The notes under the pieces were generated by a model that saw nothing but the letters and a program-made list of their open reading frames with translations, had not been told where the DNA came from and did no database searches. The translations under genes were made by a program, and so were the position numbers. From Minutocellus sp. GHC0000111 (lineage: Eukaryota), in assembly GCA_977018835.1 (NCBI GenBank), contig OZ361257.1, positions 1,054,001 through 1,118,000 of the forward strand: a DNA stretch of 64,000 bases, in the 5' to 3' direction. Positions 24,567 to 33,300 of the stretch are shown here, piece by piece (position 1 is the stretch's first letter; each line of letters starts with the position of its first letter).

Positions 24567-26348
24567 CTAGTATTGCCTTTTGAGCAGTAACTGCGAAAAT
24601 GCCCAATCCGCGATGATAATGAACAAGCTAGACAGAACAACGGAGCGAGTGATGACGCCGGGAACGCTTCTCGGTGTAAGATTTTGTGTGAATCTGGCCG
24701 CTGATTCGGAAACCAACATGACAATAGTCATGAATGTAATAGCTTTGACCAAGAGAAACAGCGGCGGATACGTCATGATTTCAATGATAGTTTCTCCCAG
24801 CGAAGAGTTGCCAACTGTGCACCGCACGTCAAGCGATCGAATCACATCCACCAGACTGTACTCATCGTACTCTCCTGCTCCCCAGGCAACAATGCTTCGT
24901 AATCGGAGCGTAGGAAAAACAGCTCTGCGAATATCCTCAAAGTACTGATCGAAAGTCCCAATCCCATAAGAAGGCCCGACAAGAGCTCCAAGATAGATGG
25001 CAATGGAAGTTCCAATGGTCGTAAGAAATGGTGAGGCAATGAGGGCAGCAACCAAAGCAGGACCGAGAGTCCATGCGCGTGGACTAATGCCCAGGGTCTG
25101 GAGAAGTTTATTCTGCGCCGTGGCTTGCATCGTGGCCACTTCACCCGCGTAGCTACCGCCAATGCGTCCTGATAATAGCAATGCTGTGACGAGTGGCCCG
25201 ATTTCCAATACGAAAAGTTTTGCCATCCCAAGTGCATAAAGAGTTGCCTTGGCTCCTGGCACTACGTTGTTTAACATGGATCGAATCTTCAGATTTATCA
25301 TCATCATTGTCATGGCATTCGGCTCATCGCCAGTAAGCATCTTGAGCATTGGTTTCACTTCCTTGTTGACAATCTCTAACACAGGGTCGGTAACGTCCAA
25401 CCTTTGGAGAATGTCCGACGACAGCATACTAATGGCAAGTCCACAAGCCACAAAGGTCAAAAGGATGAGAGGCAAGCTCCACGCGAAGTAGTCTGATAAT
25501 TTATCAGCGAATCTCTCAAATGCAGCTCGTCCATAGAGAGAAGGTTTGGTCGCTCCGCTGATAGCAGCATTTAAATTGGATTCTCTTGTGGCAGTGGGTG
25601 GATCAAGCGTCACAGTCATGTTGTGTCCGTTGTCGTCGCCTTTGACCAAGGCAGCGAGATCGGGCTCATGAGATATCAGAAGCAAGGCTGTTCCAGTCTC
25701 CTTCCGCAATATCTTTAGCTCCTTGGCCACGCTGATGGCAGCTTCTCTATCCAACCCAGCGAATGGCTCATCCAGAACAATGACATGCTTGCGCTGAGCC
25801 AGTTGTAGGGCCAACGAAGCTCGACGAGCCATCCCTCCGCTTAGCTCGGTAGGACGCTTGGGCCCGTCCCGCGCATAATCAAGGCCCACCATGTCGAGGA
25901 GCTGCTTTATCGTTCGATCCCGGTCCTCAGCAGATTGCGCGCCCTTCTCCTTCCGACGCGTTGCGCATGCCTCGAGAGCTACGCAAACATTGCCAGCCAC
26001 CGTCAAAGCATCGATGAGTGTGGTTTGTTGGAAGAGCACTCCGACCCTCTCACCGGGTTCGAGACTCTCGTCCCAAGAACATTGCTCAACGACGATGTCC
26101 AGCTTACGCAGATCCGACCGAGATGATAGCCCTGCGAGGAAGCCAGAAAGGGTGGTCTTCCCTGCTCCAGAAGCGCCAGACCTCACGCAGGCACCTGGGT
26201 ACAATGCGAAGGTGACTGACTCGTTACCATAGGGGCACTTGGGCCCAGTCCTTGAAGCCTGGAAGGTGACCAGAGGTTTGTCATTATTGGTATCGGCATT
26301 ATTGCCAGCAGTCGATGCTCTTTGCCGGCTGCTACTGCGTGTTGCCAC
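24567..26348 (-). CDS. ABC ATPase (MlaF/TGD3-like) fused to an MlaE/TGD1-like permease
   Basis: Walker A GASGAGKT, Q-loop VLFQQ, signature LSGGMARR, Walker B VLDEPFAGLD and H-loop ISHE. MlaE motif EIGPLVTALLLSGRIGGSYAGEVATM. Starts at GTG; there is no in-frame ATG before Walker A. Confidence 0.85.
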   Translation of the reverse strand: MATRSSSRQRASTAGNNADTNNDKPLVTFQASRTGPKCPYGNESVTFALYPGACVRSGASGAGKTTLSGFLAGLSSRSDLRKLDIVVEQCSWDESLEPGERVGVLFQQTTLIDALTVAGNVCVALEACATRRKEKGAQSAEDRDRTIKQLLDMVGLDYARDGPKRPTELSGGMARRASLALQLAQRKHVIVLDEPFAGLDREAAISVAKELKILRKETGTALLLISHEPDLAALVKGDDNGHNMTVTLDPPTATRESNLNAAISGATKPSLYGRAAFERFADKLSDYFAWSLPLILLTFVACGLAISMLSSDILQRLDVTDPVLEIVNKEVKPMLKMLTGDEPNAMTMMMINLKIRSMLNNVVPGAKATLYALGMAKLFVLEIGPLVTALLLSGRIGGSYAGEVATMQATAQNKLLQTLGISPRAWTLGPALVAALIASPFLTTIGTSIAIYLGALVGPSYGIGTFDQYFEDIRRAVFPTLRLRSIVAWGAGEYDEYSLVDVIRSLDVRCTVGNSSLGETIIEIMTYPPLFLLVKAITFMTIVMLVSESAARFTQNLTPRSVPGVITRSVVLSSLFIIIADWAFSQLLLKRQY

Positions 26349-26368
26349 CAGTAGGTAGAGGTCTCTTG

Positions 26369-28836
26369 CACAGCCCCATCTCGTCTTGTTTCGCCGGTCG
26401 GATGAAGCGTTTTTCGGCAGAAGACGAACACGTCACGAAGAAACCCACCAAAACCCAATCTCGTTCGTCACCATCTTTGACCGTCCAACACCATGGTGGT
26501 CCGTCGGCGTTGCGCCGGCGTATAACTATATTTTCGTACCAAATACGCATTCATTATCATGTTTGGATATAGTTGAAGCTTACTGTATCCTCAGATTGGC
26601 CTCCGCTGCGTGTCAACGCCACGAACCATCAACCCACTTTTCCTCCATCTGTCGGCCGTTCGTTTCTCTGGGGTGGCACCATTGCTCCGTCTTTGTGCTC
26701 GTCGTGCTCCCGTTGTGATGCCCCAGACCCTCTGGTACTTTCCCACGTTGTTGTTGATGATAAACTGCCGGGATTGCGCCGCACCCCCCGTATGACCGAC
26801 TCTCGCTGATCCCGACCGATCGCATCCCCACTCGACCTCCCGGAATTCCGACAACAATTTTGCGCCCGAGGAGAGACAGATAGCATTGGGATAAGTTTAT
26901 GCAACAATCAACCCGACAAAGGGACTTTTTGGTCTGGGAGATAAATGGGTGAGTTAAGAAGGACGTGATGTGTTTGTTTGGGTGTACTATTTACTTTTTT
27001 GCTCAATCGCGACACTGTTTGTAAAAGTTGGACCATGCAATTCATTTGTTGTTGTGTAGCAGCAGTGTAATTTCATTTTCTAATTTTATACATGCCCTGC
27101 TCCCATCTCTACATCCTCATCTCCATCGGTGGCCATCATGATCATTTGTTGGCGCTTGTCATCAGTTTCTGCTTTAACAGCTTCGGTCCTTGTACTTTTC
27201 CTTGTTCTTGCCGCCACCCGAGAGTTTCGCTCCCGCCTCTCCTCGACCTTTGGATTGGATGCCCTCTCCTCAGCCTTGAACTGCGCCGTCTGTTGGGCCT
27301 CATGTCCCTTGACGCCCTGAGTCCGACGATCTTCCTTAACGCCCTCTTGGTGGGCTCGCTCTACAAACGATTCGTCGAGCCAATAGATGCCGCCCCATCC
27401 ATTCTTCACTAGCCAAATGTGTTGGTCCAAGATGTGATCTTCGAGCAAGTGCCACTTGGGCGTCATGCTAACACCGATTGCCCGTGCTTGCTTGAGGGCA
27501 CTTGCAATCAATGCTTCAAGCTCTCTCACAGCCTTCTTTGCCTCATCATCCCATTTCATGTGCCATTTCAGAAACCTGGAATATGTTGCGTCAAGAGTGT
27601 GGAGCAAATTAGAGCAAGCTTTGCAGAGCTCTTTGATGTCGTCATCCGTCATGCCATCATCTTCCTCGCGATTGTGCTCTAGGAGAGTTCCTTTGGTGGA
27701 GGTGTTATGGTGGATGAACTCTATTGTCCTTGGTTTCTTCTTGTTGTTGCCATCAGAAGTGTTAACAGACAAAGCTCTCCAGCATTCTGCCAGCACTGCC
27801 CTTATTTTATCTGAGTCGGCCGCCTCAATGCCGGCCTTTTTCAGGAAATGGAAGTGAGGGGCATCGTCATCCTCGGCATCATCGACAGCTCCCATCTCTG
27901 GCTCGCCATCACCGTGCTTCTGACGATTCTTCTCAAAGTGCTGCTGCATGTGTGCTTCATGTGCAGCGTCCTCTCTTGCAATATCAGCTTCGTCCTCATA
28001 ACCGGGCACATAGTCCTCGTCTTCGTCGTCATCGTCCTCGCTGATCTCGCCGGCCTCCGTCGTGGTCAGGGTGCCCACCGTCCCAACATCGTCGTCATTG
28101 TCCCACCCATCGTCCTGGCCATTGCACCCACCAGGGAACTTCTGGGCCTCGAGCAACATCTGCCTGTTGATTTCGTAGTCCATCACAGCATGTCCCACCG
28201 ACACATGTGGTGCGACCGACTTGAGGAATGCATTACATGCCTTCGTCAAATTGAGCCGCGGCGGCGGCATTTCGAGGCGAAATTGTTGCTCGACCGTGAC
28301 CATGTCGAAAGCCATCCATCCATCATCATGGAGAGCGTCGGCTGCACGAGGATTGACAGAACCGAGGCGAACAAACATGCTCTTTTTGCATGGGGTTCGC
28401 TGAACGTCGTCTGCAAGGCAGTGTCTTGATGCCATTTCATCCCATCCATTCTGGTTGTCTGTCCTCACAAAAAACACATCGCACAGTCTTCGTGTTTCTT
28501 CTTCTTCAAACCCAAGATGCCCGCAGTGCACATGACGGCGCAGCACATGATGGGACTGCATCCCAACACATTCATCAAGGAGTCGTTGTTGTTGCCGATG
28601 AAATTGTAGTAATGAAGTTCCTTTCTGCTAAGACGGACGAGTAGTTCAGCCAGGGCGTCCTGCACCGCAATTCTGTCTGCGGTGTTGACCGCGGGATTGC
28701 GGCCGTTATTTTTTTTGCTCATGGAGAACTATGGATAGAGACCAACAGGAACATCACCGGTTGCTTCGCGCGCCGGCCGGCCACCGAAAGTGCGACCAAA
28801 AGTATGCGAGTCATCCGGCTGGCAGATGGTGCTGTG
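26369..28836 (-). mobile_element. CAC...GTG DNA transposon (Chapaev/Transib/RAG1-like), internally deleted, 2468 bp
   Basis: Left end CACAGCCCCATCT-CGTCTTGTTTC-GCCGGTCGGATGA; right end (reverse complement) CACAGCACCATCT-GCCAGCCGGATGA. Flanks CTTG and CTAG could be a 4-bp TSD with one mismatch. Encloses a transposase remnant. Confidence 0.7.
27086..28722 (-). pseudogene. Transposase remnant of the Chapaev/Transib/RAG1-like DDE group
   Basis: The C-terminal signature TPKWHLLEDH...GGIYWLDESFVERAHQ resembles the Zn-binding H-x4-H and catalytic-Glu helix of this group. The N-terminus (ATG 28722) is frameshifted near 28470-28500. No motifs for the first two catalytic Asp were seen, suggesting a central deletion. 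Confidence 0.65.
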
Positions 28837-29419
28837 CTAGGTACCTAGGTGTGTGCAACGCTCTGCCTGCTTCCTCGTGGAAGGACTTTTTGGAGGGCCG
28901 TGGCATTTCGGAGTTCATGAGGGTTCGCTTCGTATTCCCACCAGACTTCATTAAGAGGGCGCTGTCCATAACTTTTAGGAAGCCCCCAAAATGCGTGTTT
29001 TGTGCCGTTTTTTCTTCGCACCATCGCCAAAGTTAGCACTCCAACGTGACAATGGGCTCCTCATCGAAGGCCGCCGCTCTCCACAGCGGCGAAGAGTCAT
29101 CGACGTTCCTTTCAGCATTAAGTCGGAAATCCCTCCAGGAACACTTGGTTCAGAGGAACTTCGATGAATCAACTCTCCCTCAGAAACACAACAGTCGACG
29201 CACACATCATCGTCGGATCGACCGAAATTAGTCTCGGCCGACGCATAACCAGCATTGGTGGTGCTGGTGGGAAGATATCTTGAAGTTTTGCTGTTGGGAG
29301 GTAAGGGGATATTTGTTTGGGGTATTTTTGCACGTCTCCCTCATTTGGGGTTCTTTTTGTAAGGTTCTCATCGAAAAGCGTGTCTTGCGCCAGAACCGAC
29401 ACAAAACAAAAAAACAACC

Positions 29420-31736
29420 ATGGAAACATCACGTGCTAACGCCAAGGAGGCAATCCTCTCACTCTTGCTCTCATTCCCAGACGACGTCAGATGTACTTAC
29501 TACACTGTTGATGAGCTTGTCCGCATCTTGATGCGCGGTGGCGTGTCGCCGAGCTTAGAGATCTCTCTTGTTCGATCATCTCTTCAACACGTCCCAACAC
29601 GACACGAGGTCAACAACATCCAACGACGACGTCCAGAGAAAATATCAGGCCTTGACGTTGCAAAGCCCTTCTACCGCTTCTCCAGAATAGCCGATAACGC
29701 CAGCCCACGCTCTCAACGCAATGACAAGCGATCACTGCCGACCACACCTGAAAATTGCTTCCAGGACGATGAAAAGCATGGGCCCCATCTCAACGCGACA
29801 CTGAAATGTCATTCCGACAAGAATTCTTCGGGCGGTCGGTCATCTACTCCCACCGCCAACGCTACCGATCGTCCCAACATCACCGGCGTGCAGCTCAACG
29901 GCAAAAGAATTGTGGTTGAGATGAAGCAGCTGTGTGATTTCGTGCAGAATCTCCACCGATCGTGCGGCAATCTGCATCTCTCGGCCGAGCCAGTTCGGCG
30001 TGGATTCGGCGTTACATTTGAATGGCGATGCGATAGATGCAACCAACCTTTTTCTTTTTGCACTTGGATCGGCCAGAGGTCAGAAGTTGTGTGCCCCGGC
30101 AGAAAGCATTCTAGAAGTCAGGCTGGAATGAACTTGGAGCTGATGGAGGCAGCGGAAGATGAGGCCACGTACGCAAGTCGCTTCATGAATTTCTGCACGA
30201 AGGCCGACATCGTCCATCCGACCGAAAAGAATGCCCGACAGGTGGAAAAGAAATGCAGAGCAGCGGCTATTGAAGCAGCTGATGAAATCATTGACGAGAA
30301 TAGGGCAAAAGCACATGCCGCTAGCAGCAAGACTGTTGAGTTTGAACAAGGCGGCGAGATGCACACGGCGGCGGTGGTTACGGTGGCCCAAGACGGCAGC
30401 GCCCTCAAACGCGACTACGGCCATTGCTACACTGGCTCTGCTGCAGCGGTATTTGCCGTAGACAAGGAAACTGGCCTTGTTGTTAACAAGGGAATCTCTC
30501 AGGCAAGCTGCCACTATTGCGTGAGAGCCTGCAATGCAAGATTGAGGGAGAGGCGGGAAGCCGGCAATCCAACAACGCCGAGTGAGCTCAAAAACATGAG
30601 CAAGGATGAGACACTGGCCCTGTACGACCATGATGGCTTCTGCTATCGCAACTCTTCCTACTCCCCCGGTGTGGCAGAGGAGCATCTGGCCGAGAATGTT
30701 GGGAGTTGAAAATTTTAATGCCATCCCCCGACCACGCATCAATCGGATGAAACAGGACATTTCGAAGATTACTGATCGGTACAAGCACAGCGTTCTCGAT
30801 CAGCCCGATGGTGCTGTGTCCGAGGAGGAAAAACAAAGTCATCTGGCCCTCCTTCAGAAAGAACTCCAGTCCGTCGTTCGTCACCAATGTGGCATTCACA
30901 CTTTTTGCACCACCAACACGTGTGATTGGATTCGCCTCAGCATTGCTCATCCTGATTGGAGTGATGGCAAGCTCGATGAAGAATGGAGCTCGGGGAATCA
31001 ATTCGATGGCGACATATTGGAGATTAGTGACGACACGATTCGCAAGATGACGCTTGAAATAACCAAGAGAATCAACAAGAATACTGCCGACTCCAACTGC
31101 AAGAAGGAATCTACCACCGGCGTCGAACAGCTCAACGGGATGGTGACGAAGTTCACGATGGGGAAAAGGCCGAATTTGACTGCTTCAGACGCCTACCCAA
31201 ATGCAACAAGTAGAGCCGCTGGCCACAAGTCACTGGGTACGGAATTCAATGAGCGAGTTCTTGGAAAGTTGGGATCGAGGGATTCTCCTACCCGAAAAGA
31301 TGGATTCGATGCAATTGACCGGAAGCTCGAGGGCGACCTTGCGCGTAAGCGCACCGATGAGTACAAAAAGAGCAAGAGCGACAGCAAGCGCCTTCGAGCA
31401 GCCTTGCGAAACAGAAGCGAGAAAGACGACAAGGACTATGTGTACAAGAAGAACAGGGCCCTAGCTGCTGGTAAGGCGAAACCAGCAAAGCCTGGCCGCA
31501 AGAAGAAGATTGACCAGCAGTGTCAGAAATGCAAGCAGCTTGGCCACACTCGGGCTGAATGTCAATGCGACGATGCTGACGACGTTGTCGTTTACGCCGG
31601 AAAGAAGCGCAGAAGCCCAGGCAGCAACAAGAAATCTGCAAGAAATAATAAGAAAGCTAAGACAAACTTCGGTGTATCGGCAAATGATGTTAGCTCTTGG
31701 ATGCCGGCGATACTGAGAGAAAATGGCAGCTTGTAA
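29420..31736 (+). pseudogene. Kolobok-type DDE transposase with an internal deletion and frameshift
   Basis: Motifs: GFGVTFEWRCDRC; first Asp in VAQDGSALKR...TGLVVNKGISQASCHYC; HDGFCYRN; HQCGIHTFC; catalytic-Glu region TTGVEQLNG; C-terminal knuckle CQKCKQLGHTRAEC. The frame changes at about 30700, where the expected (G)DGD and CxxH segment is missing. Confidence 0.8.
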
Positions 31737-31840
31737 ACACGTGTAAAATATTTTATCACTGTAAATAAAAATGGATTTATTGTGTGCTGTTACTCACGTG
31801 CTACGCACATTCTTGTTATCTACATGTGTTGAGGTAATGA

Positions 31841-33070
31841 TTATGCATTTTCCTCTTCTTCTTCCTCTTCATCTTGATGACCAGGGATGAATCCAACATA
31901 TCGTTCACCTTTATCATTTGGATAAATGAACCTAATGCAAAAGACTAGACAGGTTGGCAAGGGCTTCCGATCAAGCCAACCTCTCACATGATACACCTCA
32001 GTTGCATAGTACCAATACAGCATGTTCCTCTTCAAATTATTTGCCATGGCTTCGACTGGCATGGTGGTTGCGTAGTATTTGTCAGCGATATCCTCCAGGT
32101 CCTCCTCCGTCGGCACCAGCATTTCTTCGCAGACGCATTTCTGAAAGAAGAGTGTGCCGTACATTGAGCAGCTTCGGTTGGCGGCAGTGCAGCAAGCAGG
32201 GGGTATTGGCGGCCTCTCTCTGGTCTCGTCCCAATTACCGAATGTGTCTGCCTCCGGCGCTGCCGTCGGATCATCGTCGGCTTCCTCACAAACGGCCGCA
32301 ACAAGAGCATCCGTGTCCGATCTGATCGCTGCTGATGGCCCACCATCTACCTGCAGAAGTTGGCCCATTCCAACAATATCAAAATCAACTAGTCCAATCC
32401 CAGCAGTAGAGTGTATGTCATCATATGGAGCCACATGCCATCGGTGGAACTTTGTCAATTTGATCACATGGCCCTGTTGTAGACTTCGGGCCTTTTCGGT
32501 AATTGTCAGGGCAACACGAGCGACGATAAGCTTTCCGCTTCCATCAAGCAAAGTAAGCGATGTGGTGTTGAAAGGTCGGCCGTGCGCAGCAAGAGCCGAT
32601 CCAATATCGATCCGTTTCCCATGAAGTTGAAATATAGGGAAGAATTCAGGTCCGGCGTCAAACATGGGATCTTGCAATTGATCGACGATGCCGACCGTCA
32701 GCCTCAACTTCACATCAGCCACGGACAGGTTGGTAACTACGAGGCCGGGCCGCTCAGCAGCGACATCAATATCATCCCGAACATGATACTTATCAGCGCG
32801 AGCCTCGACTGCTTTGACAAGATGTTGAAGTGCATGGCCGACGCCGGGATTGTTCCATAATTCTCGTCCTTGTCCGTTCGGGTCGTTCTCCAACGTGACG
32901 GCGAGGCCATCAAGTATCTCGGTAACGGCGTCTTTCGCTTTGTCCTCCGCCTTCTCTTTCTTCTTGTCAACAGGCAAAATCGGGCGACCGGAGTTATCTG
33001 TCTTGAGTTTCCGCAACCGCGTATCTGCGTTGTGGGCCGGGCCGGCACTATTATCAGCGCTGCGCTTCAT
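31841..33070 (-). CDS. Kolobok accessory protein: putative OB-fold plus KolX/P2X7-ballast-like Cys-rich domain
   Basis: Intact 409-aa ORF inside the TIRs. The C-terminus KRNMLYWYYA...RKPLPTCLVFCIRFIYPNDKGERYVGF fits the R..P.C.V..IR..FP...G.Y.GF pattern. The central segment LTLLDGSG...ARVA...SLQQGHVIKLTKF resembles the RPA70 N-terminal OB fold. Confidence 0.75.
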   Translation of the reverse strand: MKRSADNSAGPAHNADTRLRKLKTDNSGRPILPVDKKKEKAEDKAKDAVTEILDGLAVTLENDPNGQGRELWNNPGVGHALQHLVKAVEARADKYHVRDDIDVAAERPGLVVTNLSVADVKLRLTVGIVDQLQDPMFDAGPEFFPIFQLHGKRIDIGSALAAHGRPFNTTSLTLLDGSGKLIVARVALTITEKARSLQQGHVIKLTKFHRWHVAPYDDIHSTAGIGLVDFDIVGMGQLLQVDGGPSAAIRSDTDALVAAVCEEADDDPTAAPEADTFGNWDETRERPPIPPACCTAANRSCSMYGTLFFQKCVCEEMLVPTEEDLEDIADKYYATTMPVEAMANNLKRNMLYWYYATEVYHVRGWLDRKPLPTCLVFCIRFIYPNDKGERYVGFIPGHQDEEEEEEENA

Positions 33071-33300
33071 CGTAATGAAGAGGGGGCAGAGCGGCGATTC
33101 TCATGGTGGGGTCGAGTTTTTGTCATGCTTCGCTCGTCATAAGAAATAAGAATAAGGGGGATTAAAAACGGGGGAAATTATGGACAGCGCCCTCTTAACG
33201 CCCCCCCCCGCCCAAGGCAAGGGACCATAGCTAATACCAATTGGTAGCTCAGCCGATCGTTGTTTACGAACTCGTATGTGTCGATAGGCCCCGTTGCATT

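Follow-up and report, generated by a model that had tools for sequence, protein, structure and literature searches.

Introduction

Asymmetric two-block ends are already known from mobile elements related to RAG1. In five Transib families (Transib5, Transib2_AG and TransibN1-N3_AG) the 5' and 3' ends resemble the recombination signal sequences (RSS) RSS12 and RSS23 (PMC1131882, Kapitonov and Jurka 2005), and all Subgroup I Transibs are asymmetric (PMC9435367, Tao et al. 2022). AanRAGL of the stramenopile Aureococcus anophagefferens carries a 13-bp and a 10-bp block with 4/13 spacers and a 5-bp target-site duplication (TSD) (PMC9435367), and a 10-bp asymmetry was described for PflRAGL-A (10.1101/2023.08.20.553239). 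Here, an element of 2,468 bp was analyzed that lies at positions 26369-28836 of a 64,000-nucleotide stretch of Minutocellus sp. GHC0000111 (contig OZ361257.1; referred to as the window), and whose two-block ends differ in spacing by 11 bases. A first-pass annotation made from the sequence alone had assigned it to RAG1/Transib/Chapaev-like transposons with 12/23-like ends, and had overstated the novelty of such ends, which are already published (PMC1131882, PMC9435367). What is new is the exact one-turn offset in a more distant, undescribed RAG1-fold lineage.

In RAG, a dimer of the nonamer-binding domain (NBD) enforces the 12/23 rule (10.1101/2023.08.20.553239), and for ProtoRAG an asymmetric pair of ends outperforms symmetric pairs (PMC8289069). 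The origin of the 12/23 asymmetry is debated, with a Transib seed and a RAGL ancestor as the competing proposals (PMC8355894, 10.1101/2023.08.20.553239). Further definitions for class assignment were taken from PMC9587614 and 10.1101/2021.09.26.461848.

Results

The two ends share two blocks at unequal spacing

Both outer ends of the element start with CACAGC, at 26369 on the plus strand and at 28836 on the minus strand, and in an end-to-end comparison they share a terminal block with 12/13 matches and an inner block with 11/13 matches. At the short end, the terminal block CACAGCACCATCT (28824-28836, minus strand), behind which loose contig ends were found at 28836, is directly followed by the inner block GCCAGCCGGATGA at bases 14-26 from the terminus (28811-28823, minus strand). 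At the long end, the terminal block CACAGCCCCATCT (26369-26381, plus strand), at whose first base contigs start, and the inner block GCCGGTCGGATGA at bases 25-37 from the terminus (26393-26405, plus strand) are separated by 11 extra bases, CGTCTTGTTTC (26382-26392, plus strand), that are present at this end only. The shared hexamer, both blocks and the 11 extra bases on the left, all described in the first-pass annotation, were thus confirmed. Without these 11 bases the ends form a continuous 26-base inverted repeat with 23/26 matches, and homology between them ceases directly past the inner block. Relative to the transposase gene, the 5' end is the short one and the 3' end the long one.

The shared motif CGGATGA starts at base 31 of the left end and at base 20 of the right end, which are the starting positions of the RSS nonamer (7+23+1 and 7+12+1). 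Between the terminal heptamer positions, which read CACAGCC and CACAGCA, and this motif lie 23 nt on the left (26376-26398) and 12 nt on the right (28818-28829); on these counts and coordinates our recount agrees with the earlier one. A second block of at least 11/13 within 47 nt occurred in a fraction of 0.00093 of 200,000 random window pairs, and a second block anywhere in the first 100 nt in 0.028 of 2,000 shuffles. No other 12/13 match to the terminal block was found on either strand of the whole window.

CACTA-type relatives have several subterminal binding sites, and the inner block may likewise be one of several such sites, read by the N-terminal domain of the transposase or serving a 5' promoter; the spacing would then differ because each end has a task of its own, and a RAG-like pairing rule would play no part. 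Consistent with this, another 10/13 match pairs bases 21-33 of the left end with bases 48-60 of the right end, the likely ATG lies just 114 bases from the 5' end, and the transposase has a conserved N-terminal domain without a Pfam or Atlas match (see below). However, a 10/13 match arises in 0.27 of shuffles, and no subterminal repeat array was seen at the element ends. We therefore regard this explanation as distinctly improbable.

The termini recur in an abundant family

To follow copies and termini, contigs of public runs were used; 20 runs were listed and five different runs were examined, four in each of two comparisons, of which X1 is possibly the source of the window itself and X20, with one contig over the left end, was set aside as too little. 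Summed contig depth, a rough guide and not a copy number, rose across positions 26367-26373 from ~1,300 to ~190,000 in X1 and from ~560 to ~78,000 in X4. A more than 100-fold depth step at 26369 was seen in X1, X4 and X2, where many contigs begin exactly at this base. Unrelated flanks were attached at 26369 in three, four and eight contigs (X1, X4 and X2, respectively) and at 28836 in six contigs of X4 and two of X6. The depth step and the unrelated flanks show that the termini proposed in the first-pass annotation are real. An exact 54-base X4 contig within the left end had a depth of 25,000 compared with 193-213 for single-copy flank, an excess of ~100-fold, which suggests a copy number on the order of 100. 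Family copies in the runs were mostly 90-100% alike, and the family is abundant and recently mobile. A search of the element against Rfam gave no usable match. Nine RNA runs contain 35-49% of the sequence words of window positions 25400-29800.

The depth step, the loose flanks at both ends and the joint of an empty allele (see below) delimit a whole non-autonomous element at 26369-28836, for which the minus strand is given as that of the transposase remnant. The window almost certainly holds a non-autonomous RAG1-fold transposon, a copy with an internal deletion that belongs to a high-copy cut-and-paste family.

The 11-base offset is fixed in the family

At a share of 1%, no 11-base deletion of the left end was listed in the 192, 139 and 203 contigs of X1, X4 and X2. 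The indel table for 26290-26480, which starts at one read in 100, held two 1-base deletions only, and depth over 26382-26392 was equal to that on either side. Furthermore, none of the contigs among the loose ends listed exits the left end just past the inner block, as a right end bearing the 11 bases would. Since the contigs confirm the termini and the high copy number and list no 11-base deletion of the left end, the offset is a fixed, family-wide trait, a conclusion that we hold with high confidence and that bears out the fixation over copies on which the first-pass annotation depended.

Two observations count against it. Three low-depth records have 7, 12 and 13 gaps within the left end, at places that are unlisted, and the right end was judged at a share of 10%, among the indels listed. 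The gapped records could also be taken to mean that the offset is private to the window copy, or that the inverted match arose by chance. In view of the even depth over the 11 bases, the three runs without the deletion and the contigs just described, such an explanation is hardly credible.

An empty allele shows a polymorphic insertion

The empty-site allele that had been sought for this insertion was found in X1 and X4, in each of which one element-skipping contig of single-copy depth joins 26369 to 28860. In the empty allele, as read from one X4 contig, TCTTG is followed by CGCTTTACATGTAC and then by CTAGGTAC repeats; in the window the element sits directly between TCTTG and CTAGGTAC. The right flank of the element (28837-28859, plus strand) is this host CTAGGTAC repeat, which also stands behind 26369 in the X4 contig and recurs in similar form at three further places of the window. 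Beside the right end of the element, no fewer than 14 host bases that the empty allele has are missing, owing to a deletion next to the end or to a haplotype difference. As X1 carries the left junction of the window while the depth of X4 stays flat across it, the insertion is polymorphic.

The 4-bp TSD CTTG/CTAG, which had been proposed with a mismatch, was rejected, because CTAG belongs to the host repeat and the empty allele has extra bases in between. The window copy has no TSD. In X1, a joint from 28837 to 26368 of about single-copy depth reflects a tail-to-head tandem of two element copies, with four bases (CGCG) between GCTGTG and CACAGC; this is the only spacing seen. It weakly supports a TSD of 4 bp, against which it counts that a single junction is involved. 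When the flanks left of 26368/26369 were pooled, the last four bases of their consensus were GC-rich in X1, X4 and X2 (agreement 0.47-0.64, 1-8 contigs).

The transposase remnant derives from a protein of about 1,100 residues

A full-length transposase, which had been sought for the element, was found in three proteins, P0013, P0167 and P0170 (920, 1,089 and 1,097 aa), which were taken to come from the same or a close genome; the remnant in the window is 95% identical to them on both sides of its deletion. The enclosed open reading frame (ORF) itself lacks 572 residues, among them both catalytic aspartates. On the minus strand, the remnant likely starts with an ATG at 28722, which lies 114 bases in from the 5' terminus (segment 28484-28722), where ORF 28465-28728 matches the N-terminus of P0170 and P0011. 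A frameshift follows near 28482, and a 2-base deletion at 28482 is common among other copies. The main frame (27086-28483, minus strand) fuses full-length residues 61-328 in frame to residues 901-1097 (tblastn identities to P0170 of 95.5% and 95.0%). At the junction (27680-27685, minus strand) the 572 aa, ~1.7 kb, that are removed comprise the helices at the NBD position, the dimerization and DNA-binding domain (DDBD), both catalytic Asp residues, C(2)C and LH. The region with H(4)H and the catalytic Glu is retained (27371-27463, minus strand; TPKWHLLEDH...DESFVE), as judged from the sequence and the family alignment, and the string TPKWHLLEDH...ESFVERAHQ reported earlier for the enclosed ORF was found.

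Ten stored proteins, including that of the window, carry this deletion junction and three have the intact form. The junction is also present in the representatives of four 90% clusters with 57, 23, 30 and 70 members. The deleted form, which is unable to move itself, is amplified in trans, and since it spread with these ends, this end pair is a working substrate.

Other internal deletions were observed as well. At least five distinct in-frame deletions (P0001, P0009, P0011, P0012, P0180), found in this family and its sister families, fuse the N-terminal to the C-terminal part of the transposase; they may stem from ascertainment by protein search or from gene-calling errors, and could be truncated repressor proteins. 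Among other forms in the runs, 27012-27233 and 27542-28234 are skips of 220 and 691 bases with depths of 1,350 and 3,022 in X1. No ORF of more than 85 aa, and hence no RAG2-like gene, was found in the 3' 730 bases of the deleted copy, from which the full-length element may differ.

The catalytic motifs in P0013 are GADHG (D339), GDLA (D438), C(2)C (C455/C458), LH, YHGG, H(4)H (H801/H806) and E827. Counted over alignment rows with a residue at the position, the first Asp is conserved in 5/5, the second in 9/10, C455 in 10/10 and the His of LH in 13/14, most rows being fragments that are gapped at both Asp positions. H806 and E827 are present in all 31 aligned family members and the first His in 28 of them; the tree holds the family's own members only. 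The motifs are conserved over a diverse family at 20-30% identity, and the lineage comprises 180 proteins at E<=0.001 among 50% representatives, some of which are fragments of the family itself; sister families are represented by P0011, P0034/P0180, P0172, P0197 and P0148. Further features of the protein are an acidic linker and a coiled coil of considerable length (P0013 ~556-675), which separates LH from YHGG and the last His/Glu motifs. An N-terminal domain of ~150 aa (P0170 residues 1-175), which was not part of the folded model, is common to relatives at ~20% overall identity; for these 175 residues no Pfam match and no usable Atlas match were obtained.

Searches for known accessory domains were negative. 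Pfam gave no match near the cut-off for P0001, P0009, P0011, P0012, P0013 and five relatives. Neither a Chapa zinc finger nor a RING was found, as a CxxC upstream of the first Asp is absent in four of five full-length proteins and isolated in the fifth, and the last 110 residues of the five contain no CxxC that could form a C-terminal Cys cluster. No related loci were detected in viral contigs (queries P0011, A3 and P0163) or in metagenome contigs (A3 and the two-block DNA pattern). A single match in a bacterial genome (L001) was discarded as chance, since it lies in a bacterial coding region that is otherwise unlike the window and the proteins.

The transposase is predicted to adopt a RAG1/Transib fold

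An AlphaFold2 model built from 79 sequences reached a predicted local distance difference test score (pLDDT) of 72 and a predicted template modeling score (pTM) of 0.71; a single-sequence model (pLDDT 37) was set aside. Foldseek matched the model to RAG1 (E 1.4e-11), BbRAG1L (E 7e-8) and HzTransib (E 1e-3); an unrelated fold first came up at 0.11. In structural alignment (VIA), residues 227-879 of the model were superimposed on mouse RAG1 460-1007 with Z 20.4 and a root-mean-square deviation (rmsd) of 4.5 over 466 aligned residues; BbRAG1L gave Z 18.6 (rmsd 4.6, 479 aligned), HzTransib Z 18.5 (rmsd 4.5, 431 aligned) and the P-element transposase Z 11.5. Identity in the structural alignments to RAG1 and BbRAG1L was only 11-12%. 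The Atlas ranked unnamed eukaryote clusters first (0.96), followed by RAG1 (0.94), so that RAG1/Transib is nearest among the named clusters; the nearest clusters overall hold eukaryote proteins that are commonest in Cnidaria, and one of them has DUF1280 on 12% of its members. Sequence searches of the PDB returned coiled-coil matches only among the matches listed (in one search the best 60 of 90). The model supports a predicted RAG1/Transib fold and the kinship to RAG1 and Transib proposed in the initial assignment.

As RAG1 entries that lack the NBD start at ~461, the part of the model immediately upstream of the aligned region corresponds to the NBD position. The helices predicted there can be aligned in four relatives at 20-41% overall identity.

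Neighbouring features

A second high-depth element (28955-33194, 4,240 bp) begins 118 bases from the right end of the RAG1-fold element. It has perfect 17-bp inverted repeats GAGGGCGCTGTCCATAA and is flanked by TTAA at either end. It contains a PF20700 transposase with a frameshift (29363-30709 and 30600-31736, plus strand) and a convergent ORF of 419 aa (31841-33100, minus strand) without a Pfam match. Its TTAA TSD and RR..YY termini fit Kolobok (PMC9587614). Within its transposase ORF, 33 bases (30786-30818, CACAGC...GCTGTG) match bases 1-12 of the right end of the RAG1-fold element and lack an inner block; with an E of 0.12 in the window, the match is likely due to chance.

On the other side lies a gene for an ABC-ATPase/MlaE permease fusion (24567-26432, minus strand), with the RAG1-fold element ~150 bases upstream of its ABC domain. 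X1, X4 and X2 hold an allele of this gene without 25619-25842 (224 bases). Joining the two flanks directly, without removing any bases, gives an open frame into the ABC gene; this was put down to coincidence because the extra bases of the true empty allele bring a stop into that frame.

Discussion

The family belongs to the CMCT clade (EnSpm/Mirage/Chapaev/Transib, with RAG1), as defined in PMC12730594, in its catalytic motifs, its 5'-CA..TG-3' termini and its predicted fold. With Transib it shares the predicted RAG1-type fold, a single ORF, CAC termini, non-autonomous derivatives and perhaps GC-rich targets (PMC1131882, PMC9435367), and with the asymmetric Transibs the short 5' and long 3' end (PMC1131882). 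In contrast to Transib, it has neither a CACAATG heptamer nor an A-rich nonamer, its inner block being GC-rich, the spacing seen at one junction is 4 bases instead of a 5-bp TSD, and the protein, at ~1,100 aa, is extended by an additional N-terminal domain and contains a long coiled coil. The arrangement of the ends found here, in which two conserved blocks are spaced unequally and the short end lies 5', is also that of RAGL elements and Subgroup I Transibs: in AanRAGL, a terminal block of 13 bp is likewise followed by a second one whose spacing differs between the ends (PMC9435367), and two-block asymmetric ends are found in ProtoRAG (27/31) and PflRAGL-A. Unlike RAGL elements, whose TSD is 5 bp (PMC9435367, PMC7204232), the family shows no RAG2-like ORF in the deleted copy, no GRP(R/K) motif and no C-terminal CCGHC tail. 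Compared with V(D)J recombination, the transposase has its best structural match in RAG1, and the ends share the first five heptamer bases and the position of the inner motif at 20 and 31; the element is however mobile and not a domesticated gene, it has no nonamer, no RAG2 and a conserved spacer, and no sign of a 12/23 rule was seen.

The long insertion of the transposase and its GxDHG and YHGG motifs may be Chapaev-like. Among the Chapaev hallmarks named in PMC4079192, the family has CAC...GTG termini and a DDE transposase in which C(2)C, LH and H(4)H are present, and perhaps also the TSD, which is 3-4 bp in Chapaev. The termini and these three motifs do not separate Chapaev from Transib. 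A Chapa zinc finger or RING, as in the Chapa alignment of PMC4411706, is missing from the family, and no report of two-block asymmetric ends in Chapaev was found in the literature. In its mode of action the family resembles Transib/RAGL, and by the listed hallmarks it comes nearest to Chapaev. Because it lacks a defining feature of each (the Chapa finger of Chapaev, the heptamer-nonamer of Transib, the hook or tail of RAGL), it was filed under none of the three. The host is likely a diatom, as the first-pass annotation proposed, which would fit the gene content. In the literature searched, in part by title and opening of the abstract, no such family was found described in diatoms, and the supplement of PMC9435367 mentions neither diatoms nor Chapaev; a stramenopile family of this kind may be present in Repbase Reports.

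The full-length transposase of ~1,100 residues, whose element is predicted to be ~4.2 kb long, likely moves the deleted copies in trans. By analogy to the RAG1/Transib family, a transposase dimer would pair the ends and cut at CAC, leaving a hairpin on the flanking DNA, and insertion would take place into GC-rich targets with a short stagger and probably a 4-bp duplication. The catalytic core and the DDBD would hold the terminal 13 bases, and a dimer of the helices at the NBD position (P0013 ~166-225) would probably hold the GC-rich inner block of both ends. With an offset of one turn, the inner block would stay on the same side of the DNA helix, and if the dimer is tilted, pairs of a short and a long end would be favored. 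We would expect the asymmetric pair to be preferred but not strictly required.

That the enzyme reads the offset was considered because its length (one turn), its position (20 and 31) and its polarity (short end 5', long end 3') agree with known asymmetric systems, and we judge this reading to be evenly balanced. Several observations weigh against it. The GRP hook is absent in six of six proteins, and the inner block is GC-rich and not an A-tract. The bases between heptamer and CGGATGA are largely the same at both ends, which sets them apart from RSS spacers and makes 12/23 one way of counting a 0/11 gap between two 13-base blocks. The segment at the NBD position has a pLDDT of only ~30-50, and the one alignment that runs in register into the NBD (6oen_C, model 166 onward to RAG1 398 onward, 523 aligned) has an rmsd of 12.4 in addition to low model confidence. 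Moreover, the RAGL-B enzymes of invertebrates are considered to depend on the outermost 15-17 bases and to respond rather little to asymmetry (PMC7204232). Fixation was seen in a single family that could descend from one master copy, and the ends of the full-length element are inferred.

In a different explanation the offset is a frozen accident: the enzyme would need the terminal 13-17 bases only, and an old 26-base inverted repeat would have taken an 11-base indel in the master copy, which then spread passively with the amplification of the family. The 23/26 inverted repeat that remains once the 11 bases are removed, the missing GRP hook and the fact that all copies seen belong to one young family, mostly 90-100% alike, would fit such a history, as would the dependence of RAGL-B and BbeRAG1L mostly on the terminal region (PMC7204232, 10.1101/2023.08.20.553239). 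By rough estimate, a random indel of up to 25 bases is 10-12 long in about 1 of 8 cases. However, length, position and polarity all match the pattern of asymmetric Transibs (PMC1131882), and the inner block has been kept at 11/13 on both ends with homology ceasing right past it. A frozen accident is a real possibility, though we lean against it. The strongest form of the enzyme-read offset, that a RAG2-free, Chapa-free branch outside Transib/RAGL enforces a true one-turn pairing rule via an NBD-type dimer on a GC-rich box, appears unlikely to us.

A fixed 11-base offset in a lineage without nonamer, GRP hook and RAG2 would show whether asymmetry stems from the architecture of the enzyme and not from the nonamer. 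This question is directly testable, as the family is abundant and insertion-polymorphic and intact full-length ORFs are on record. If a one-turn pairing rule holds, the 12/23 geometry would be an ancestral trait of the entire Transib/Chapaev/RAG radiation that does not depend on the A-rich nonamer, and it would be open to study in a recently active algal element.

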